This document shows positions 1,581 to 55,340 of a stretch of 64,000 nucleotides of DNA, in pieces; positions within the stretch are counted from its first letter, which is position 1, and each line of letters begins with the position of its first letter. The stretch spans positions 485,368 through 549,367 of the forward strand of contig LCLP01000001.1 in assembly GCA_001002135.1 (NCBI GenBank). Direction: 5' to 3'. Under the pieces are notes generated by a model. It ran no database searches. It saw nothing but the letters and a program-made list of their open reading frames with translations, and had not been told where the DNA came from. The position numbers and the translations under genes were made by a program. This DNA comes from Candidatus Pacebacteria bacterium GW2011_GWA1_46_10 (GTDB lineage: Bacteria > Patescibacteriota > Microgenomatia > UBA1400 > PJMF01).

Positions 1581-4415
1581 TTACTCAAGTAAAAGCGGCC
1601 CTTCACCTTTCACCAACTGCGTGCGGGTTTTTGTCTCAATCTCCGCTTGCCACCGGTCAGGCCAGTCAGGCAACTGCATTTTCGCCCGGTCACTGGCGGC
1701 CAAACCGGCCTCACGTCGCAGGTTTTGGATGGCACGGATGAGCTCTCGAGCCTCACCCTCTTCCTTTAACTCATTAGTGAGTTTCACATCCAACAAAACA
1801 GTCAGCGGTACATCCTGGGTAACTTTTCGCCATACTACTTTTTTGACATTGAGTTCCTGTCCAATCAGCGTCTGGAATCGTTCCACAGCGCGGGGAAGTT
1901 GGTTCTCTGAGACTGCTATGGTGACCGTAGTCAATGGTTGACGAACACGCACCCCATGTTCTTTGCGAGCAGCACGCCCAAGTTCTACCACTTTTCTAAC
2001 CATCGCCATCTCAGTTTCCAGTTGAGTGTCTCGCAGCGCTTGATCAACCGACGGCCAATCAGTTAAATGAATGGAAGTTTGATCGTCAACTAAATTGTGG
2101 TGAATGAGTTCGGCAAAGAAAGGCGCGAATGGCGCGAAGAGTTGGGCCAGTGTATACAGCACATAGCCCAACACTTGGCTTGGCTCTTGGTTATTCTCAG
2201 CCTTCAGCCGCTCTCGACTCAACCTGAGATACCAGTTTGAAAGATCGCTGACAAATTCCATGAGAGTGCGACTCGCACGTACCAAATCATAGCTGTCCAT
2301 GAAGTCAGTGGTTTGTTGTATTAACGTTTCCAGTCGACTGAGTATCCATCGATCAAGGATGTGCTCTGGTTTATTAGGTTGAGTCGGCTGGGTTTGCTTG
2401 GCAAAGGTTTGATAGAAACTGACCACGTTCCACCAAATAACAAAAACTTTTCGGCGAATATCGGCCACCTCTTTTTGGTTAAAATTGATGTTTTCTGCCT
2501 TCATCACCGCTGAACTCATCAGGTACAGTCGCAAGCTGTCCGAGCCGTATTGGTCAATCAATTTCAGCGGATCGGGGAAGTTTTTCTTAGACTTGCTCAT
2601 CTTGGAACCGTCCTCAGCCAAGATAGTGCCTGTCGTCAGTGCATTATTAAATGCATGAGTCCCAAAAATTCCCACAGAGATAACATGCATCGTATAAAAC
2701 CATGCTCGAGTTTGGGCAATATATTCACTGATAAAATCCGCCGGGTAATTGCTGTCGAATTCGGCCACATTTTCAAATGGATAATGTCTTGAAGCAAACG
2801 GCATTGAGCCAGACTCAATCCAACAATCAAAGACTTCAGGGATGCGTTTTCCCTTAATTGTTTTGCCATCGTCAACCCAGAGTTCAATCTCATCAAGAAA
2901 TTCACGATGTAAATCAATCAATTTACTAACTTGTTTGGGATCGACTGCCCACTCTTTCAATTCATCCATTGAGCCAACAATCCGTCGTGCGAGTTCGCCG
3001 CTTTTATCTTTACCAACCCAGATCGGCATCGGTGTCCCCCAATAACGGGAGCGGGAAATGTTCCAATCAGGCGCATTCTCCAAACCGTAGAGGAAACGGC
3101 CATACTTGAGGTGTTCCGGCACCCAGTTGATATCTTCATTGTGGTCAATCAACTGCTCCTTGATTTGTTGGATATTAATAAACCAAGCGGGGAGGGGAGC
3201 ATGATAAAGCCGAGTGCCGCAGCGATAACAGACTGGTACACTGTGAGTTAGTGGTTCTTCTTTATAAATCAACCCACGCTGTTTAAGCTCTTCATTGATT
3301 AGGGGGTTGGCCTCCAAAATATTCATGCCCGCCCATGGCTTGACTGCCGCCTTGAGGTTGCCTTCGTCGTCAACGTGTTCGGCCAACTGCACGTCATGAG
3401 CCTTCATTACTCGGTAGTCATCCTCGCCATAGACGGCCAAAGTGACAATACCCGTGCCTTCTTGCCCCGTCACAAACTCATCAGCAATTACCACTCCCAC
3501 TTTATCTTGCGGACTACGCTCACCTTCATAAAAATCATAGTGTGGAGCAAATTGTAGTTTCTCTAAATCTCTGCCCTGATATCTTTCGACAATCTTAAAA
3601 TCACCCCGCAGCATCGTCAGCCGCTCTTGGGCTAAGATATAAAACTCATCATCCTGCTGGACTTTCACGTAATCCAGGGTTGGGCTTACCGCCAACGCTG
3701 GGGTGGCTAACTTATTCCAAGGAGTGGTTGACCACGCCAGTAAAAAAGTCTTGGGTTCACCAACTACTGGGTATTTATAGACTGTCGAAGTTTCAGCCAC
3801 GTCGGTGTAACTGTTATCCATGGCAATCTCAAAATTGGAGAGAGGAGTAGCGCAACGCGGACAATACAAAATGACTTTTTTGCCTTCATAGACCAAGCCT
3901 TTTTCCCAAAGTTGTTGAAAGCCCCACCAGACTGATTCCATGAAAGTTTGATCCATCGTCTTGTAGCTATGCTCAAAATCCACCCAGCGACCCAGTCGGC
4001 CAATCACTCGTTCCCATTCTTTATCCAAGCGCAGCACTTCCGTTCGACAAGCAGCGTTAAAGACATCAATCCCAAGCTTTTCAATTCCTTTCTTCCCACC
4101 TTTGATGTCCAGCTTTTGTTCGATGATGTTCTCAATCGGCAGACCATGACAGTCCCACCCCCACACTCGTTCCACCCGTTTCCCACGCATGGTTTGATAC
4201 CGTGGTACGACATCTTTTGTCGTTGAGGCCAACAAATGACCATAGTGAGGCATGCCAGTGGCAAACGGTGGGCCGTCATAAAAAACGTAGCTGTTGTCAG
4301 CCGGACGCGCTTTGACCGATTTTTCAAACGTCTTGTCTTGCCGCCAAAACGCCAACACTGCCTCTTCCAGTTTTGGTAAATCTGGTGGTTGATGAAAATG
4401 CGGTATCTTTGGCAT
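1581..4415 (-). CDS. ileS: isoleucyl-tRNA synthetase (type 2, eukaryote-like)
   Basis: class I HIGH motif PPFATGMPHYGHLL, KMSKS motif KMSKSKKN, about 945 aa; ATG at 4415-4413 preferred over the TTG at 4430 used by the ORF track; SD-like GAAAGG 7 nt upstream. Confidence 0.93.
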   Translation of the reverse strand: MPKIPHFHQPPDLPKLEEAVLAFWRQDKTFEKSVKARPADNSYVFYDGPPFATGMPHYGHLLASTTKDVVPRYQTMRGKRVERVWGWDCHGLPIENIIEQKLDIKGGKKGIEKLGIDVFNAACRTEVLRLDKEWERVIGRLGRWVDFEHSYKTMDQTFMESVWWGFQQLWEKGLVYEGKKVILYCPRCATPLSNFEIAMDNSYTDVAETSTVYKYPVVGEPKTFLLAWSTTPWNKLATPALAVSPTLDYVKVQQDDEFYILAQERLTMLRGDFKIVERYQGRDLEKLQFAPHYDFYEGERSPQDKVGVVIADEFVTGQEGTGIVTLAVYGEDDYRVMKAHDVQLAEHVDDEGNLKAAVKPWAGMNILEANPLINEELKQRGLIYKEEPLTHSVPVCYRCGTRLYHAPLPAWFINIQQIKEQLIDHNEDINWVPEHLKYGRFLYGLENAPDWNISRSRYWGTPMPIWVGKDKSGELARRIVGSMDELKEWAVDPKQVSKLIDLHREFLDEIELWVDDGKTIKGKRIPEVFDCWIESGSMPFASRHYPFENVAEFDSNYPADFISEYIAQTRAWFYTMHVISVGIFGTHAFNNALTTGTILAEDGSKMSKSKKNFPDPLKLIDQYGSDSLRLYLMSSAVMKAENINFNQKEVADIRRKVFVIWWNVVSFYQTFAKQTQPTQPNKPEHILDRWILSRLETLIQQTTDFMDSYDLVRASRTLMEFVSDLSNWYLRLSRERLKAENNQEPSQVLGYVLYTLAQLFAPFAPFFAELIHHNLVDDQTSIHLTDWPSVDQALRDTQLETEMAMVRKVVELGRAARKEHGVRVRQPLTTVTIAVSENQLPRAVERFQTLIGQELNVKKVVWRKVTQDVPLTVLLDVKLTNELKEEGEARELIRAIQNLRREAGLAASDRAKMQLPDWPDRWQAEIETKTRTQLVKGEGPLLLE

Positions 4416-4609
4416 CAAAAAACCTTTCAAGCTATCTCACGCTATGCAAGATAACTTGAAAGGCTTCTCTGATTGAGAAAGGTACCAGCCTTTCCGTACT
4501 CGTTGGCTGCTATTACGGGCAAACCCGGTTGACTCTACTCTCCCTTTAAGGATTTCCTCCAACACCTTGCTTGGTGATTACCAAGCTCAAACGGCTTTAC
4601 TCAATGAGA
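4416..4609 (-). promoter_or_regulatory. T-box riboswitch leader, Ile-specific, with ultrashort Stem I (Actinobacteria-ileS-like architecture)
   Basis: read as RNA on the minus strand: specifier hairpin GCUUGG-UAAUCA-CCAAGC (plus 4569-4586) with AUC (Ile codon) followed by A in the terminal loop; antiterminator with helix A1 GAAAGG/CCUUUC, bulge containing UGGU (complementary to tRNA 3'-ACCA; T-box core ...GGCUGGUACC...) and helix A2 UUCUC/GAGAA; mutually exclusive hairpin CCUUUCAAGUUAUCU...AGAUAGCUUGAAAGG (plus 4423-4463) followed by UUUUUUG and then the AUG; this hairpin sequesters the SD GAAAGG. Confidence 0.7.
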
Positions 4610-4615
4610 ATTATA
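4610..4615 (-). promoter_or_regulatory. -10 box TATAAT driving the ileS T-box leader
   Basis: minus-strand TAGGGTATAATTCTCATTGAG immediately after the ftsZ stop codon. Confidence 0.45.
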
Positions 4616-4617
4616 CC

Positions 4618-5952
4618 CTATTTGCGTTGTCGTAAAAAAGCGGGGATTTCAAACTCGTCATCAAAGTCATCGCTCGGGAGTTCAGGAGGAGTTTCATCGT
4701 CTTGATCTTTATCGCTCTTTTTAGCTTTTTTAGTTTGTTTCGTATCATCCTGGGTGGAGTCATCAAACGCTGCTGACTGGATAAAAGGACTTGTCGCATC
4801 ATCAACCTGTTGTGTTTGGCCGCCAGTCACTTGCGACTTAGTCATGGGCTGTACCCACCCTTCGGGTGCACGATCGATTCGATCCTCTTTCTCTTCAGCT
4901 TCTATTTCATCGGTTTTACCAGTCCGATCACTGCCAACATGTTTCATGGCACTCCGACCATAGGCGCCAAACATACTGCGCTGGTTGTAGGCCATCTTGT
5001 CAGCAAAACCAGTGGCAATGACACTCACCTTTACTTTATTATTCATGCTCTCGTCAATTGTGGCACCAAAAATGATGTTGGCATCAGGATCGGCCGCATC
5101 GGCAATAATGGCGGAAGCATCCGCCACTTCTGCCATCGTCATGTCTTGACCACCAGTAATAGTGTAGAGAATCCCCTTAGCCCCACTGACCGAAATTTCC
5201 AAGAGTGGGGAAGAAGTGGCCATTCGAGCCGCTGAAACTGCCCGATTTTCACCGAAAGCTTCACCAATTCCCATCAGGGCACTGCCGGAATCTGTCATCA
5301 CTGCTCTGACATCAGCAAAATCAACATTGATTAACCCTGGCACGGTGATCAGATCAGAAATCCCTTTCACGCCCTGACCAAGTACATTATCGGCCAACCG
5401 GAAAGCATCCAAAAAAGTCATCTTCTTATCCACCACCTCCATCAACCGCTGGTTGGGAATCACAATGAGCGTGTCAACCGAGTCTGCTAAGATCTCAATC
5501 CCTTCCTCAGCCGTCTGCATTCGGCGAATGCCCTCGAAAGCAAACGGTTTGGTAACGACCGCCACAGTCAGTGCACCCGCTTCCTTAGCAATCTCAGCGA
5601 TGATGGGGGAAGCACCCGTGCCAGTACCGCCACCCATGCCGGCCGTGATAAACACCATGTCGGTATCAAACAACAAGTCTTTCAGTTTTTCTCGGCTTTC
5701 ATCAGCCGCCGTACGACCAATTTCTGGATCCGCCCCAGCCCCCAAGCCACGAGTAAAATTACTGCCGATCTGCAGTTTGGTGTCCGCTTTGGAGGTCAAA
5801 AGCACCTGAGCATCAGTGTTAATGGTAATAAACTCCACCCCTTGAATCTGCTTGGACTCCACCATGGAGTTGATGGCGTTACCACCCCCGCCACCGATCC
5901 CAATCACTTTAATCTTGGCAAAAGTAGTATTTGCAGGTTTAACCAATCCCAT
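4618..5952 (-). CDS. ftsZ: cell division GTPase FtsZ
   Basis: tubulin signature [13 protein letters not shown]; T7 loop region; C-terminal FtsA/ZipA-binding peptide [13 protein letters not shown] after a long acidic linker. Confidence 0.95.
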
Positions 5953-6038: not shown

Positions 6039-7343
6039 TCAAGGCAAGATTGACTTAATAATACCCCGGATTTTTTCTCCCACTCCTTTTAAATTCACGC
6101 TTTCCAAAATCGAGCCAAAACTGGCCGTTGGCACTGGCGCCGCGCCGCGAGTCCTGCCATATTCTAAAAGACCAATATTGACAGCGTACGCCGGGCCATG
6201 GATATCACTAACCAAACCCTTGAGTGGTGAGGGAGTGCCAGTCCGAACTGGTAAATTAAAAACCCGCTTAGCCACTTCCACAATCCCAATAGTTTGCGCT
6301 CCGCCGCCACACAAGATTAAACCGGCCGGCACTTTTCCCAGCACGTCATGTTTTTCTAGATCAGCGGCAATCAGTTCAAAAATCTCCTTCATACGCGGCA
6401 CCATAATCCCTTCGATGACAGTCCTTCTGGAAAGAGTGTCGACACTTTCGTGAATGCCGTGGGTGGCCAAGTCGATTTTATCGGCACGCTTGCGGCGTTT
6501 CATCAATTCTTCCTTTGTCTCGCCGGGTTGAGGTTTTAAAGTTGCTTCATCGGTTTTGGAAAGCAACAGTTTAACTTTTTCAGCATTATCCAAACTAATC
6601 CGACAGCCCAAGGCGATGTCTTGCGTAATATGCCTGGCGCCCACCGGCACCGAGCCAGAGTATTCCAACGAACCATCAATAAAAGCCGAGAGTGAAGTGG
6701 TGCCAGCTCCCATATCGACCACTACTGCTCCCAGTTCTTTTTCTGTTTCCGATAACACCACCTCTGAGGCGGCTAAACCAGCAAACACAAAGCCGTCAAC
6801 TTCCAAACCAAGGTCATTGACTACTTTTTCCAGATTTTTAAGCGAGGTAGTCATCCCAGTAATAATATGTGCTTCTGATTCCAGCCTGACACCAGTCATC
6901 CCCACTGGATCTTTAATGCCTTCTTGCGAGTCAACCTTAAAATCACGCGGAATGACGTGTATGATGCGCTGATCGGCGGGCAGTGAAATGGCGCGAGCCG
7001 CTTCAATCACCCGTTCGACATCACTGGCGGTAATTTCTTGATCTGGGGCGGCCACCGCTACTACTCCCTTGGAGTTTTTAGAAGTAATATGCGTGCCGGA
7101 AACAGCCAAATACACGCTGCGCACATCAAAACCAGCCATGCGCTCAGCGGCATCCAAACTTTGACTCATCGTGGCCAAAACTTGATCAAGGTCAACAATC
7201 ACACTGCGTTTCATACCTTTAGCAGGCACTACCGAAACTCCCACTACCTTCAGCTCACCAGTTTCTTCATCCACGACCGCAATAATCGTGACACACTTTT
7301 CTGTCCCAAGATCAATAGCAGTAATTACCCTCTTTTTTGGCAT
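6039..7343 (-). CDS. ftsA: cell division protein FtsA (actin-like ATPase)
   Basis: N-terminal VITAIDLGTEKCVTIIAVV phosphate-1 motif; 434 aa; located between ftsQ and ftsZ. Confidence 0.93.
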   Translation of the reverse strand: MPKKRVITAIDLGTEKCVTIIAVVDEETGELKVVGVSVVPAKGMKRSVIVDLDQVLATMSQSLDAAERMAGFDVRSVYLAVSGTHITSKNSKGVVAVAAPDQEITASDVERVIEAARAISLPADQRIIHVIPRDFKVDSQEGIKDPVGMTGVRLESEAHIITGMTTSLKNLEKVVNDLGLEVDGFVFAGLAASEVVLSETEKELGAVVVDMGAGTTSLSAFIDGSLEYSGSVPVGARHITQDIALGCRISLDNAEKVKLLLSKTDEATLKPQPGETKEELMKRRKRADKIDLATHGIHESVDTLSRRTVIEGIMVPRMKEIFELIAADLEKHDVLGKVPAGLILCGGGAQTIGIVEVAKRVFNLPVRTGTPSPLKGLVSDIHGPAYAVNIGLLEYGRTRGAAPVPTASFGSILESVNLKGVGEKIRGIIKSILP

Positions 7344-19483: not shown

Positions 19484-20551
19484 ATGAAAAATCTAGGCTT
19501 TTGGCACGAGCTGAAAAAACCAATCGTCGGCCTCTCACCGATGGACGGTGTGACAGATTATCCTTACCGGCATATTCAGAAAAAATACGGCCATCCTGAT
19601 GTGGTCTATACCGAGTTTGCCACGGTGGAGGGGTTTTGCCGTGGTGTGGAGAAAGTGTTGGATGATTTTCTTTATGACGAAGCGCAGCGACCGATCGTGG
19701 CCCAGATTTACGGTACCACTCCAAAGTTTTTCCGCGAAACAGCCACCGCTTTGTGTCAGTTAGGCTTTGATGGCATTGATATCAATATGGGTTGTCCGGC
19801 TAAAAGTGTGGCACACAGTGGGGCGGGAGCAGCTTTGATCCTTACCCCGAAGTTAGCTCAGCAAATCTTGAAAGCGACCAAGGCTGGGGTGGGGGATTGG
19901 CAAAACGGGAAAACCGTTCGTGATTGCTCACATATCACTCAGAAACTGACTCAAGAAATCGAGAGACGTCATCAACAACTGCCCAAAAAATATCAACAAC
20001 ATGATCGACCAATCCCCGTGACCGTCAAGACTCGCGTGGGCTTTGACATTAAGGTCATCCAAAACTGGATCAAGACGTTACTGGAAATCGAGCCTGTGGC
20101 CATTGCCATTCATGGTCGAACACTTAAACAAGGATATGGCGGTACAGCCGATTGGGAAGAAATCGGCAAGGCCGTGCAAACCGCCAAAGGCTCAAATACG
20201 ATGATTTTTGGTAATGGTGATGTGCATAGTCGTCAACAAGCACTTGAAAAGGTCAAACAGTATAGCGTTGACGGTGTTTTAATTGGCCGGAGTACCTTTG
20301 GCAACCCTTGGGTCTTTCAGGACCAGGAAGTTGACATTCACACCAGCGCCGGTGTAGCCGTTGAACATAGCCAGTTTTTCGAAGACATTTTTAAACACCG
20401 GGAAAACTACCGTTTTTTACCCATGCGCAAACACCTCGGTTGGTATATCAAAGGCATTCCCAATGCCACCGATATCAGGGTGCAGCTAGTCCAAGCCGAT
20501 AGCGCTCAACAAGTGCACGATATTTTGAAAAGTCACCAATTAATTTCATAA
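19484..20551 (+). CDS. dus: tRNA-dihydrouridine synthase (Dus family, FMN TIM-barrel)
   Basis: IVGLSPMDGVTDYPYRHI (Dus N-terminal signature), conserved Cys/Lys region, about 355 aa. Confidence 0.88.
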   Translation: MKNLGFWHELKKPIVGLSPMDGVTDYPYRHIQKKYGHPDVVYTEFATVEGFCRGVEKVLDDFLYDEAQRPIVAQIYGTTPKFFRETATALCQLGFDGIDINMGCPAKSVAHSGAGAALILTPKLAQQILKATKAGVGDWQNGKTVRDCSHITQKLTQEIERRHQQLPKKYQQHDRPIPVTVKTRVGFDIKVIQNWIKTLLEIEPVAIAIHGRTLKQGYGGTADWEEIGKAVQTAKGSNTMIFGNGDVHSRQQALEKVKQYSVDGVLIGRSTFGNPWVFQDQEVDIHTSAGVAVEHSQFFEDIFKHRENYRFLPMRKHLGWYIKGIPNATDIRVQLVQADSAQQVHDILKSHQLIS

Positions 20552-27878: not shown

Positions 27879-27903
27879 TCTACCTTTATTAAATACTAAA
27901 AAG

Positions 27904-27976
27904 TGCCAAGCTGAAGAATCGAACTTCAATCTCATGTTTTTCAGACATGCGCCGTGACCACCTTGGCTAGCTTGGC
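27904..27976 (-). tRNA. tRNA-Phe (anticodon GAA)
   Basis: acceptor GCCAAGC/GCTTGGC, anticodon loop CUGAAAA, T-loop TTCGATTC. Confidence 0.85.
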
Positions 27977-28006
27977 ATCCTCAAACGTCTGGTTTTCAAA
28001 AAACCG

Positions 28007-28080
28007 TGGACTCGAGAGGGCTCGAACCTCTGACCTTCCGGATGTAAACCGGACGCTCTAACCAACTGAGCTACGAGTCC
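28007..28080 (-). tRNA. tRNA-Val (anticodon UAC)
   Basis: acceptor GGACTCG/CGAGTCC, D-arm GCTCAGTTGGTTAGAGC, anticodon loop UUUACAU, T-loop GGTTCGAGCCC. Confidence 0.9.
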
Positions 28081-28098
28081 GCATCAAGTCACTTTCCG

Positions 28099-28180
28099 TG
28101 CCCAGGAGAGGAGTTGAACCTCCAAGGATTGCTCCACAGCCACCTCAAGACTGCGCGTCTACCAGTTTCGCCACCTGGGC
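28099..28180 (-). tRNA. tRNA-Leu (anticodon GAG), class II with long variable arm
   Basis: acceptor GCCCAGG/CCTGGGC, anticodon loop UUGAGGU, long variable arm, T-loop GGTTCAACTCC. Confidence 0.85.
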
Positions 28181-28204
28181 ATTCAGCCTCTCCATGAGAG
28201 TGTG

Positions 28205-28278
28205 AGCGAGAAACGGGACTTGAACCCGCGACCTTCTCCTTGGCAAGGAGACGCTCTAGCCAACTGAGCTATTCTCGC
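28205..28278 (-). tRNA. tRNA-Gly (anticodon GCC)
   Basis: acceptor GCGAGAA/TTCTCGC, anticodon loop UUGCCAA, T-loop GGTTCAAGTCC. Confidence 0.9.
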
Positions 28279-28348
28279 GCTAGACAGTCAATTATATCGT
28301 AAAAAAACTAACTATTAACTTTTAGCTTTTCACTGTCAACTATCCTTG

Positions 28349-28431
28349 TGCCAGAGGAGGGAGTCGAACCCTCACACCCTTGCGAGCACTAGTTCCTGAA
28401 ACTAGCCTGTCTACCATTCCAGCACTCTGGC
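28349..28431 (-). tRNA. tRNA-Leu (anticodon CAG), class II
   Basis: acceptor GCCAGAG/CTCTGGC, anticodon loop UUCAGGA, long variable arm, T-loop GGTTCGACTCC; TATAAT -10 at 28443-28448 on the minus strand. Confidence 0.88.
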
Positions 28432-52376: not shown

Positions 52377-55340
52377 CTATCCTCGGTGTTCAGGTGCATT
52401 AATCAAGCCGCATTTCTTGTATTTCAGGCCACTGCCACAGGGGCAGGGGTCGTTGCGGCCGATTTTGACCTGTTTAGAACCTGGGTTAGGCATAGCGCCA
52501 CCCTTGGCGGTACCCAAGGCTTTGGCCAAATCACCCAAAGACCCACTGGTTTTTTGTGGTGCTTTGCCAGGAGAGGGTGGGGTAGCGTCAGCCACTTCTT
52601 TGGCCAGACTCTCATGGATGTCTTCTTTCTCCAGCTTAACGTTAGTGGGCACAATCGGTTGGGTGGGCAAGCGAGCGGGTTGAACGCGGAAAATGCGATG
52701 AGCAATGGTGGAATCAATCGTTTGAATGAGGTTTTCGAATAAACCAAAAGCCTCCTTTTTGTATTCAGACAAGACCGTTCGCTTATCACCCCGCAGCCAA
52801 ATCCCTTCTCGCAGACTCTCCACTTCATCTAAGTGGTCCATCCATTTTTCATCAACAGTCGAAAGAACCACCAGTCTTTCGATCTGACGCAGTTGAATCT
52901 TACCCAACACTTCCTCCCTCGACTGATAGGTTTTCGTCACTACCCCGTTCAATCGATCAATAATAGTAGTTTCATTTTCCAGCTTTTTTAAATCACTCAA
53001 CAGTTTTTTCTGTGAATTTTCATCAAACGGAATAATAGTCACAAATTCTTTAACCAAACCGTCATACATTTCATCCGAAAAACCTTCGGCCGTTTTACTC
53101 GTCACCAATGAGCGTACTTCATTCTCCAAGAAGCCTAAGATTTGCTCTTTGAGCGACTCACCATTAACCTCTTCACCTTCCGCCTCAGCTTCGGCCTGTT
53201 CCAGTAACCGACGGCGGCGCTGGTAGATAATCTCTCTGTGTTTGTTCATCACATCATCAAACTCCACCAGTCTTTTGCGCTGATCAAAGAAAAAGCCTTC
53301 AACCTTAACCTGTGCCGACTCGATTGATTTCCCGACCATGGCATGCTCGATCGGCTGATCTTCCTCAATCTTGAGAAAATCCATCACCTTAGCAATCTGT
53401 TCGCCACCAAAAATGCGCATAATCTCATCATCCAGGGCAATAAAGAACTGTGAAGAACCCGGGTCACCCTGACGACCGGAGCGCCCCCGCAGCTGATTGT
53501 CAATCCGGCGAGATTCATGCCGCTCAGTGCCAATGATATGCAAACCGCCAAGCCTCACCACTTCTTCGTGCGCCTTTTGCCATCTATCAATCGCTGAGGC
53601 GTACTCGCTTAATTTATAGTTGGCAGGATTAATGTTAGTAGGCAGTTGAAGGTGAGCTAATTTCTTTGGTAAAGTCATTTTTTTCTTGGTCAAGGTTTTT
53701 TTGCGAAACTCTTTGAGTTCCGGCTGTGCACCCCCCAAGACAATATCCACCCCGCGGCCGGCGATGTTGGTGGCGACCGTAATCGCTCCTTTCTTCCCAG
53801 CGTCAGCAATAATAAAAGCCTCTTTTTCATTATTTTTGGCGTTCAAGATTTGATGGGGGATTTTCTTGCGGCTCAAAAAATTAGCAATAATCTGGTTATT
53901 TTCAATTGAGCGGGTACCGAGCAAAACTGGTCGCCCTTTGGCATGCAAGCGCTCAATTTCCTTGACAATCGCCGAGTACTTGGCCGCGGTAGTCTTGTAC
54001 ACCACGTCTGGCCGATCTTCACGGATACCCGGCACATTGGTGGGAATGACCAAAACATCCACTTCGTAAATCTTATTGAACTCTTCTGCTTCGGTGGCCG
54101 CCGTACCGGTCATACCAGCCAATTTGTCATATAACCGGAAATAATTCTGAATAGAGATCGTGGCCAGTGTACGCGACTCTTGCTGGATCGGCACGTTTTC
54201 CTTGGCTTCAATCGCTTGATGTAAACCATCCGAGTAGCGGCGGCCATACATTAATCGGCCCGTGTGTTCATCCACAATCACCACTTGATTCTCGCGAACA
54301 ATGTACTCCTTATCGCGATGATAAAGCGTCATGGCTTTGAGCGCCGACTCCACTTGGTGGATCGTGTCGAAACTCTCCTCATAGAGATTTTTCACATTGA
54401 GTTTCTGTTCAATCCGTTTTACACCCAAGTCGGTCAAGGTGGCCGCTTTGGCCTTTTCATCAACTTTATAGTCTTGATCTTTCACCAGTGATTTCACCAT
54501 GTGAGCCGAGTCGTAGTATTTCTGCGTCGGTTCACTATCAGGTGCGGAGATAATCAGTGGGGTACGGGCTTCGTCAATCAGAATCGAGTCGGCCTCATCA
54601 ACAATGGCGAAATGATGAGTGTTGTTCTGGCGTTGGACCATGCGATCTAGCGATTGGACCATGTTATCGCGCAGATAATCAAAGCCGAATTCATTATTGG
54701 TGCCATACGTAATATCAGCTAAATAGGCGTCCTTGCGCGGAATTTCCACAAAGTGTTCCAAGCGTTCGTCACCCCGGTCTTCACTGTCCACACTGGGATC
54801 ATAGAGTTTGGCATGATCATGAATAATCACCGATGTCTTCAAGCCGAGGAAATGATAGATTGGTCCCATCCAACCAACGCCTACTTCCGCCAAGTAGTCA
54901 TTGACGGTTACTAGGTGCACACCTTTGCTCAACAGAGCGTTGAGATAGAGTGGAGCGGTGACAGTGAGCGTCTTTCCCTCACCCGTTTTCTGCTCAGTGA
55001 TATTGCTTTTATGCAGGGCAATACCCGCTAAAAGCTGGACATCATACGGCCGTAAACCCAAGACACGCCGAGAAACCTCACGTACTGTGGCAAAGGCCTC
55101 CGGCAATAGTTCATCGAGCATATTCTGCTCGGCGAGTCTCAAGGCTTGCGGATCAACCTCGATAATTTGTTTCCGGGCTTCATCAATTGCTCGACGGAAT
55201 TTTTCCGTCTGGGCGGCGAGCTGTGTATCAGTGAGTTTTTTGATGGTCGGCTCAAGCGCATTGATTTGCTCAACGATTTTTTGGTACAAGCCCAGTTTCT
55301 TTTTGTTCTCATCAAAAAGGCCGGCCAGAAACTTAAACAT
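52377..55340 (-). CDS. secA: preprotein translocase ATPase SecA
   Basis: 987 aa; DEAD-like motor (Walker A within NBD1), C-terminal zinc-binding tail DPCPCGSGLKYKKCG; TATAAT 8 nt before the ATG. Confidence 0.95.
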   Translation of the reverse strand: MFKFLAGLFDENKKKLGLYQKIVEQINALEPTIKKLTDTQLAAQTEKFRRAIDEARKQIIEVDPQALRLAEQNMLDELLPEAFATVREVSRRVLGLRPYDVQLLAGIALHKSNITEQKTGEGKTLTVTAPLYLNALLSKGVHLVTVNDYLAEVGVGWMGPIYHFLGLKTSVIIHDHAKLYDPSVDSEDRGDERLEHFVEIPRKDAYLADITYGTNNEFGFDYLRDNMVQSLDRMVQRQNNTHHFAIVDEADSILIDEARTPLIISAPDSEPTQKYYDSAHMVKSLVKDQDYKVDEKAKAATLTDLGVKRIEQKLNVKNLYEESFDTIHQVESALKAMTLYHRDKEYIVRENQVVIVDEHTGRLMYGRRYSDGLHQAIEAKENVPIQQESRTLATISIQNYFRLYDKLAGMTGTAATEAEEFNKIYEVDVLVIPTNVPGIREDRPDVVYKTTAAKYSAIVKEIERLHAKGRPVLLGTRSIENNQIIANFLSRKKIPHQILNAKNNEKEAFIIADAGKKGAITVATNIAGRGVDIVLGGAQPELKEFRKKTLTKKKMTLPKKLAHLQLPTNINPANYKLSEYASAIDRWQKAHEEVVRLGGLHIIGTERHESRRIDNQLRGRSGRQGDPGSSQFFIALDDEIMRIFGGEQIAKVMDFLKIEEDQPIEHAMVGKSIESAQVKVEGFFFDQRKRLVEFDDVMNKHREIIYQRRRRLLEQAEAEAEGEEVNGESLKEQILGFLENEVRSLVTSKTAEGFSDEMYDGLVKEFVTIIPFDENSQKKLLSDLKKLENETTIIDRLNGVVTKTYQSREEVLGKIQLRQIERLVVLSTVDEKWMDHLDEVESLREGIWLRGDKRTVLSEYKKEAFGLFENLIQTIDSTIAHRIFRVQPARLPTQPIVPTNVKLEKEDIHESLAKEVADATPPSPGKAPQKTSGSLGDLAKALGTAKGGAMPNPGSKQVKIGRNDPCPCGSGLKYKKCGLINAPEHRG

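Follow-up and report, generated by a model that had tools for sequence, protein, structure and literature searches.

T-boxes are textbook tRNA-sensing riboswitches and candidate antibiotic targets, and they are known in Firmicutes, Actinobacteria and a few other phyla. An ileS T-box with an ultrashort Stem I was reportedly described by Sherwood and colleagues in 2015 in the Actinobacteria Mycobacterium smegmatis, Mycobacterium tuberculosis and Nocardia farcinica. In this study we analyzed 64,000 nucleotides of DNA (hereafter the window) from Candidatus Pacebacteria bacterium GW2011_GWA1_46_10, a member of the Patescibacteria or candidate phyla radiation (CPR; contig LCLP01000001.1, positions 485,368 to 549,367 of the forward strand), where the minus-strand leader between ftsZ and ileS is almost certainly an isoleucine-specific T-box riboswitch. 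The IleS of M. tuberculosis is of type 2, the eukaryote-like form, and the IleS of the window is likewise type-2-like. A structure of the actinobacterial ultrashort-Stem-I ileS T-box is available (Protein Data Bank 6UFG, as cited in PMC12647780), and to date the ultrashort Stem I has been associated with translational ileS T-boxes of Actinobacteria (review PMC7583486). The database TBDB used the Rfam family RF00230 plus a translational ileS model confined to Actinobacteria. No paper joining T-boxes with Patescibacteria, CPR, Saccharibacteria, Parcubacteria or Microgenomates was found in a literature search of partial coverage, which is not proof of novelty.

The leader was read as a compact-class isoleucine T-box of Patescibacteria that very probably acts by tRNA-Ile-dependent antitermination, in the manner proposed below. 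A first-pass annotation of the same DNA, made from its letters alone, had suggested an Ile-specific T-box with an ultrashort Stem I in front of a type-2 ileS, and all the strings it had quoted (the TATAAT box, the specifier hairpin, the antiterminator strands and the competing hairpin) were found in place by a sequence check. The leader departs from the textbook T-box in three ways, namely by combining an ultrashort Stem I with a terminator, by having no Stem III, and by placing the terminator, which contains the only Shine-Dalgarno (SD)-like motif, next to the AUG.

For comparison, 166 CPR ileS loci (numbered L) were collected in three sets. A GTDB search with the IleS alignment as query gave 80 loci among the matches listed, many of them from distant CPR and DPANN, and six close relatives were retrieved by exact protein sequence. 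To these 86 loci were added 80 metagenome loci, found with the IleS N-terminus as query and therefore selected blind to RNA. The nearest IleS homologs (62-80 % identical) came from metagenome-assembled genomes of Pacebacteria, Woesebacteria and Microgenomates. The window leader was joined by nhmmer to more distant leaders (L021, E = 4e-6; L042, E = 3e-4; and others). A covariance model, R1, was then built from a structure-blind MAFFT alignment (A3) of 23 compact leaders. R1 found a single match in the 64-kb window (4481-4598, minus strand; 105 bits; E about 1e-21), which is among the best scores against this family model. Significant matches were obtained in 30/86 and 24/80 related loci (54/166), about 32 of them outside the seed, and every match lay 5' of ileS and on its strand. 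No match was found in the 18 archaeal-labelled loci. The element is therefore not a one-off case and is widespread, being present in about a third of the sampled CPR ileS loci. It accompanies ileS also at loci where the upstream neighbour is not ftsZ, for example in L087, L005, L021 and L042.

All leader coordinates given here are on the minus strand of the window. The Stem I module (4564-4595) has an ultrashort Stem I of 6 bp, in which GCUUGG (4586-4581) pairs with CCAAGC (4574-4569), above a basal GA motif (GCC-GUU-UGA ... AA-GGU) that forms a putative kink-turn (K-turn). The apical loop UAAUCA (4580-4575) presents the isoleucine codon AUC (4576-4578) followed by the purine A at 4575, and the downstream gene is ileS. 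Stem II (4528-4563) has a basal helix GUUGG/UCAAC, an S-turn in which GAA (4556-4554) lies opposite AGUA (4539-4536), and an apical helix UCC/GGA. It is followed by a Stem IIA/B pseudoknot (4508-4527) with IIA formed by CGG(G)/(C)CCG, an F-box-like CCCGUAA (4519-4513), and a proposed IIB of UGC (4521-4519) with GCA (4510-4508). A single-stranded linker (4495-4507) with a conserved GAG (4501-4499) follows, and Stem III is missing. The putative K-turn, Stem II and its S-turn, the pseudoknot with its F-box and the GAG linker were not included in the first-pass annotation. The whole sensing core (4458-4598) is about 140 nt, and the M. tuberculosis core construct is 166 nt (PMC12647780).

The 23 leaders of A3 share a K-turn-like GA motif, the AUC-loop hairpin, GAA opposite AGUA, CGGG-NNNG-CCCG-UAA, a RAG linker and UGGNACC. 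When the structure was taken from the window row of this structure-blind alignment, 88.8 % of the cells of the decoding domain were paired, versus 68.9 % in shuffles and 30-48 % when partners were slid by 1-3 columns, and double-sided changes were found in 17 of the 22 pairs. In a larger alignment of 53 leaders, 94.9 % of the decoding domain was paired versus 62.9 % in shuffles; this alignment was fitted to R1, and the structure-blind count is the cleaner test. Stem I was paired to 95.4 % among the 53 leaders, with double-sided changes in all six pairs, and to 83.9 % on the structure-blind alignment. AUC was present in the Stem I loop of every leader that could be read (about 50/53), while the flanking loop bases and the stem vary. 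Thus the prediction of an ultrashort Stem I with AUC as specifier in its apical loop was borne out by conservation of the codon and covariation of the stem in relatives.

The other parts of the decoding domain were conserved to different degrees. The C-stem of the K-turn was paired to 81.9 % with double changes (53 leaders) and the pattern CC-GUU-UGA ... (G/A)A-GG is conserved; its register shifts by 1 nt between subgroups, and its sheared pairs are beyond the reach of covariation. The basal helix of Stem II was found unaided by RNAalifold (0/23 sequences broken, 3-5 pair types per pair) and was 98.1 % paired among the 53 leaders. IIA was invariant in 23/23 leaders, as were the two inner pairs of IIB, and the third IIB pair could form in 10/23 (AU in six, UA in four). 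The pseudoknot is therefore proposed from invariant bases in its IIB part, where covariation cannot give proof. The RAG motif of the linker is nearly invariant in relatives, and a 'GAG linker' has been described for the M. tuberculosis ileS T-box (PMC12647780).

No hairpin corresponding to Stem III, which in the general family stands immediately 5' of the T-box sequence and belongs to the discriminator core, was predicted in the 21 nt between the F-box and helix A1 of the window (dG 0.0). Such a short, Stem III-less linker was observed in 24/50 leaders including that of the window, and in the remaining 26 a hairpin occupies precisely this position. A tiny CG-AGUA-CG hairpin was rejected as a vestigial Stem III, as it is not conserved in the window subfamily. 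In addition, five leaders have an intermediate Stem I (L147:869-940, L007:2105-2180, L006:1776-1850, L130:805-880 and L119:857-920), in which a short distal hairpin 5' of AUAUC(A/G) makes the specifier a side bulge and AUC is kept. The CPR family thus spans a continuum from intermediate to ultrashort Stem I.

The antiterminator (4458-4494) is formed by helix A1, GAAAGGC (4494-4488) with GCCUUUC (4464-4458), the T-box bulge UGGUACC (4487-4481), which is extended by an extra U to 4480, and helix A2, UUCUC (4479-4475) with GAGAA (4469-4465) around the loop AAUCA. Its constrained fold has a free energy of -11.4 kcal/mol. The one extra U gives the window subfamily an 8-nt bulge (UGGUACCU) in place of the 7-nt UGGNACC of the general T-box family. 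On a structure-blind MAFFT alignment of 28 general-family leaders, A1/A2 were paired to 86.8 %, versus 67.7 % in shuffles and 29-56 % with slid partners, and double changes occurred in 9 of the 10 pairs. In the nine-member subfamily of the window the two helices were 91.5 % paired and nearly invariant. UGGNACC directly adjoins A1 in about 50 leaders, and the 3' strand of A2 runs straight into that of A1; UGGN adjoins A1 in all known T-boxes (review PMC7583486). In the subfamily A1 is best drawn as GAAAGGY/RCCUUUC, with a closing pair C:G in the window and L018, U:A in L081, L083, L085, L088 and L108, and U.G in L084, L087 and L111. The first-pass annotation was right about the UGGU bulge and the two helices, which are conserved and covary. 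However, its A1 (GAAAGG/CCUUUC) is better drawn one pair longer; with GAAAGGC/GCCUUUC the UGGU directly adjoins A1.

We also analyzed a pairing of CAGCC (4505-4501) with GGCUG (4490-4486) that appears in the minimum free energy (MFE) fold and would sequester the UG of UGGU. It was rejected as a conserved element: the equivalent (CAAUC/GGUUG) is possible in L081 and L085 and impossible in L084, L088 and L108. Judged from these sequences the pairing is probably non-functional, and the C/U change, common to it and to the A1 closing pair, is open to either reading.

Bacterial tRNA-Ile is expected to have A73 as discriminator, with which the U of UGGU would pair. Different bulges were seen in a few leaders. 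UGGAACC in L008 (2422-2428), L091 (1144-1150) and L117 would pair U73 rather than A73, and the AGGU of AGGUACC in L067 (about 1945-1951) would mismatch A76. The window itself contains a cluster of five tRNA genes on the minus strand (27903-28431), for Phe-GAA, Val-TAC, Leu-GAG, Gly-GCC and Leu-CAG.

The competing structure is a terminator (4417-4465) made of a 20-bp hairpin (4465-4421) and U6 (4422-4417), followed by G and then by the AUG. The hairpin has a free energy of -27.6 kcal/mol, and its 5' arm reuses GCCUUUC, the 3' strand of A1, so that the antiterminator and the terminator are mutually exclusive. The two conformations suggested by the first-pass annotation could thus both be folded, and the energies of both are within the ranges reported by TBDB (terminator -19.5 +/- 7.9 and antiterminator -7.4 +/- 4.2 kcal/mol). 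The competing terminator-like hairpin was likewise supported by relatives, as compensatory changes were found in 12 of the 16 predicted terminator pairs (10 subfamily leaders). The complete leader has an MFE of -72.4 kcal/mol versus -49.2 +/- 4.2 kcal/mol in shuffles (z = -5.6), and 0/200 shuffles fold equally well.

Through one relative, RF00230 ties the family to known T-boxes. L057 (66 bits against R1) was matched with 72.6 bits and E = 4e-16 over model positions 1-219, and the alignment spans the K-turn, the S-turn, CGG...CCGUUA, Stem III and AGGGUGGUACCGCG. The model places GCGAUGA...GAGC of L057 on K-turn positions, its GAA/AGUA on the matching S-turn positions and its CGG...CCGUUA on the IIA/F-box positions. 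In this alignment 76 positions of distal Stem I are deleted and replaced by 6 nt. It is because of this missing platform that L057 stays below the RF00230 gathering threshold of 93 bits.

In the mechanism that we propose, transcription would start a few bases past the TATAAT box, and read-through from ftsZ may also enter the leader. The decoding module, consisting of the putative K-turn, the 6-bp Stem I showing AUC-A, Stem II with its S-turn and the IIA/B pseudoknot, would fold first and capture the GAU anticodon of tRNA-Ile. If the tRNA is uncharged, the weak antiterminator (A1 + A2, -11 kcal/mol) would be stabilised and the polymerase would continue into ileS and probably also through ftsW/rodA and rplU. 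With a charged tRNA, or with none, the 20-bp hairpin (-28 kcal/mol) would take the 3' strand of A1, and U6 would terminate transcription 1 nt before the AUG, provided that the CPR polymerase responds to such a site. The hairpin would also bury the only SD-like motif, GAAAGG, and a read-through transcript that refolds may then be poorly translated. We consider it likely that the main action is transcription antitermination, and an added translational layer is possible, if somewhat doubtful.

Whether the hairpin acts on transcription or on translation was judged mainly from the U-run. A hairpin with a U-run of about 5-6 or more (at least 6 in nearly all) was observed in 49/51 family leaders, and on account of this family-wide U-run transcription termination is argued to be the primary mechanism of the family. 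An alternative is a purely translational T-box as in Actinobacteria, where the hairpin hides the SD, the U-tract is only a spacer between SD and AUG, and no termination takes place. The ultrashort Stem I, hitherto tied to translational ileS T-boxes, speaks for it, and so does the arrangement in the window, where the 3' arm of the hairpin contains the only SD-like motif of the leader (GAAAGG, 4423-4428), separated from the AUG by 7 nt (UUUUUUG). This layout is common to 12 other leaders: the U-run ends 0-3 nt before the AUG in 13 leaders including that of the window, and nearly all of these, though not L154, carry an SD-like motif in the 3' arm. In addition, L153 (1106-1188) and L090 (1126-1203) have a T-box core without a U-run, and the hairpin or adjoining sequence covers a strong SD (AAAGGGGG and GGAG, respectively), so that they look like translational sequestrator variants in an otherwise terminator-type family. 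However, the U-run is also kept in more than 25 leaders in which it stands 15-1184 nt before the AUG, several having an SD-like motif of their own, and there it is not merely a spacer. The close relatives L084 and L087 have the same hairpin and U-run, yet a separate AAAGGA SD follows 19-27 nt downstream. SD-like motifs were also rare, being found in 5/42 long open reading frames (ORFs) of the window versus a background of 0.10, by a crude count with crude start calls. SD use in this genome thus appears low, and GAAAGG is a putative SD, recognised by its sequence. The first-pass annotation correctly had the only SD-like motif in the hairpin, and its proposed sequestration of the SD is weaker than it had stated. 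The leader agrees with the actinobacterial short-Stem-I type in its ultrashort Stem I and departs from the sequestrator-only platform of that type, given the U-run in 49/51 leaders. For these reasons we regard a purely translational T-box as unlikely.

Two other explanations deny that the leader is a working riboswitch. The hairpin and U-run could be just the terminator of the ftsAZ operon, with T-box-like motifs present by chance. The window has no Rfam match, and no second terminator was found between ftsZ and ileS, so that this hairpin would end the ftsZ transcripts. However, some bypass would be required if an essential gene had a terminator 1 nt ahead of its start codon, the 140 nt 5' of the hairpin are conserved with five covarying helices and an invariant AUC and UGGNACC, the element follows ileS without ftsZ as neighbour in L087, L005, L021 and L042, and L057 matches RF00230 (E = 4e-16). 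Covariation, with the homology of the leaders indicated by nhmmer (E = 4e-6) and R1 (105 bits), has effectively refuted the terminator-only explanation, and we give it next to no weight. It is also very improbable that the leader is a decaying T-box remnant, constitutively ON or OFF and unresponsive to tRNA, although two canonical modules (Stem III and distal Stem I) are missing and decay does occur in the family. The distribution is patchy, and the element was lost outright in close relatives such as L001 and L004. The leader of L086 (IleS 74 % identical; 2413-2503) is a decayed T-box, in which the K-turn and Stem I are kept with an AUU loop, Stem II through A2 is deleted, and a terminator with U5 still stands directly before the ileS AUG; it reaches just 20.7 bits with R1. 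The window leader has one of the best R1 scores (105 bits), its other modules are all intact, purifying selection on them is seen in the subfamily together with compensatory changes, and the occurrence of the Stem III-less form in 24/50 leaders points to a stable design.

Several observations weigh against a compact T-box acting by antitermination and have to be set beside this evidence. The RF00230 scan, which the first-pass annotation had proposed as a check, gave no match on the window at the gathering score, nor with a cutoff of E<=10 on 301 nt or on 151 nt. These Rfam scans yielded only chance microRNA and small nucleolar RNA matches on the long hairpin, and a gathering-score scan of 20 related loci gave just one tRNA and no T-box. 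L100, the top R1 scorer among the relatives and also without Stem III, had only 10.1 bits against RF00230. Taken with the 72.6 bits of L057, this gradient down to no match in the window indicates that the class is a true T-box lineage beyond RF00230 detection. The first-pass annotation had named a missing Rfam match together with lack of conservation as the outcome that would count against it; the match is missing, while conservation and covariation were found for A1, A2, Stem I and AUC. Covariation of A1/A2 has little power within the nine-member subfamily of the window. A tRNA-Ile gene was found neither in the window, which has 10 tRNAs, nor in 60 related loci, so that GAU and A73 are predicted features. 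In transcriptional T-boxes, fast capture of the tRNA is said to depend on the long Stem I platform, which the window leader lacks. Finally, 34 hairpin-plus-U-run sites were counted in the first 20 kb of the window versus 22.7 +/- 5.7 expected. This enrichment is mild, so that the use of intrinsic terminators by the organism is not independently established, and intrinsic terminators that are not clearly enriched would also suit a purely translational T-box. The T-box hairpin is by far the strongest terminator-like site in these 20 kb.

The genes around the leader are all on the minus strand, in the order ftsA (6039-7343), ftsZ (4618-5952; stop TAG 4620-4618), a gap of 202 nt, ileS (1581-4415; AUG 4415-4413), ftsW/rodA (493-1563) and rplU (148-474). 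FtsZ has the Pfam domains Tubulin and FtsZ_C, and the 944-aa IleS, the product of the regulated gene, has tRNA-synt_1, Anticodon_1 and DUF5915, in agreement with the earlier assignment of a type-2 ileS directly downstream of ftsZ. Close relatives keep the synteny ftsA-ftsZ-(190-240 nt)-ileS-ftsW-rplU plus the entire leader architecture, and the order ileS-ftsW/rodA-rplU is kept in L081, L083, L084 and L086. The gaps between ileS, ftsW/rodA and rplU are just 17-18 nt, and the three genes are probably co-transcribed. If so, tRNA-Ile would also control a cell-wall/division protein of the SEDS (shape, elongation, division and sporulation) family and ribosomal protein L21. Some lineages have an extra ORF between the T-box terminator and ileS. 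These ORFs encode a 367-aa membrane-like protein in L054 (1321-2424), proteins of 117-126 aa that are four-helix-bundle-like by eye in L032 (2089-2442) and L036 (1912-2292), and proteins of about 140 aa in L006 (2064-2489) and L067 (2027-2440), and they would be the first genes under the T-box.

A probable leader promoter is represented by the -10 box TATAAT (4610-4615, minus strand), 2 nt past the ftsZ stop. TATAAT is found at the equivalent place in L081 and L083-L086, mostly as TGTTATAAT, and a consensus promoter scan at the leader found no full -35/-10 pair; a promoter function is thus suggested by conservation of the -10 box. TATAAT-like boxes 7-12 nt 5' of the start codon were also seen in many long ORFs of the window, for example those starting at 19484, 21770, 25539, 26591 and 31560 on the plus strand and at 55340 and 5952 (ftsZ) on the minus strand. 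Together with the few SD-like motifs, these boxes suggest that leaderless or very short-leader mRNAs are frequent in this genome.

A compact T-box on about a third of the sampled Patescibacteria ileS genes extends the T-box family into a vast radiation whose members have tiny genomes, are for the most part uncultivated and have few known regulators. With a sensing core of about 140 nt it offers a natural minimal design for structural and synthetic work, as well as a way to test directly whether transcriptional control needs the Stem I platform, as has been argued on kinetic grounds. A 2024 perspective stated that Patescibacteria need an inducible expression system and proposed riboswitches as candidates, mentioning them only as prospective tools (PMC11665869); the element described here is a native regulatory element that could be offered for the genetics of these bacteria. 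We further propose, tentatively and as an idea that is plausible without being quite favoured, that it stands for an unannotated, clade-wide CPR class of minimal T-boxes that act co-transcriptionally without elbow platform or Stem III. One hairpin would then serve as terminator, SD sequestrator and ftsZ operon terminator, and ftsW/rodA and rplU might be under tRNA-Ile control. If true, such a class would contradict both the need for a platform in fast tRNA capture and an invariant discriminator core.

When compared with the actinobacterial ileS T-box, the element of the window shows many similarities, which were judged from published descriptions and not from a leader-to-leader alignment. Both regulate ileS and have AUC plus a purine in the apical loop of a short Stem I without elbow-binding platform. 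They also share Stem II with an S-turn, a IIA/B pseudoknot, an F-box (CCGUCA in N. farcinica and CCCGUAA in the window), a GAG linker, a UGGN bulge adjoining A1 and an alternative hairpin over an SD-like sequence. As is typical of the ultrashort class, the window leader carries its specifier in the loop at the tip of Stem I and has a Stem II domain, which in that class compensates for the missing platform. In contrast to that class, which has an SD sequestrator without intrinsic terminator, its hairpin is followed by U6 and by a U-run conserved in the family, as in an intrinsic terminator and not in a pure sequestrator. The host also differs (Patescibacteria), Stem III is absent, and the bulge of the window subfamily has 8 nt (UGGUACCU).

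The second comparison is with the transcriptional T-box of Firmicutes (RF00230; Bacillus subtilis tyrS and ileS). Common features are the specifier-anticodon and UGGN-NCCA pairings, which in the window are predicted, an antiterminator that competes with a U-run terminator, the S-turn, the F-box and the T-box sequence, and a K-turn is probably common to both as well. Unlike the Firmicutes element, whose long Stem I has interdigitated T-loops, Stem I of the window is a 6-bp hairpin, and the distal part (the AG bulge and the distal loop platform for the tRNA elbow) is replaced by a 6-nt loop. The window also has no Stem III and a diverged T-box sequence (GGCUGGUACCUUUC versus AGGGUGGNACCGCG). Glycine T-boxes have neither Stem II nor IIA/B (review PMC7583486), and most other T-boxes possess a Stem II with S-turn and a IIA/B pseudoknot bearing the F-box. 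The glyQS-type minimal T-boxes are similar in being naturally reduced and acting by transcription termination, but their reduction is the opposite one: glyQS has lost Stem II but retains the long platform of Stem I as well as Stem III, whereas the CPR element keeps Stem II and IIA/B and lacks the platform and Stem III. As type-2 IleS is shared with Actinobacteria, the proposed clade-wide CPR class could be an evolutionary link between the translational T-boxes of Actinobacteria and the transcriptional T-boxes of Firmicutes. What appears new at this locus, as read from its sequence, is the host radiation of a clear T-box and the unusual way in which its modules are combined.

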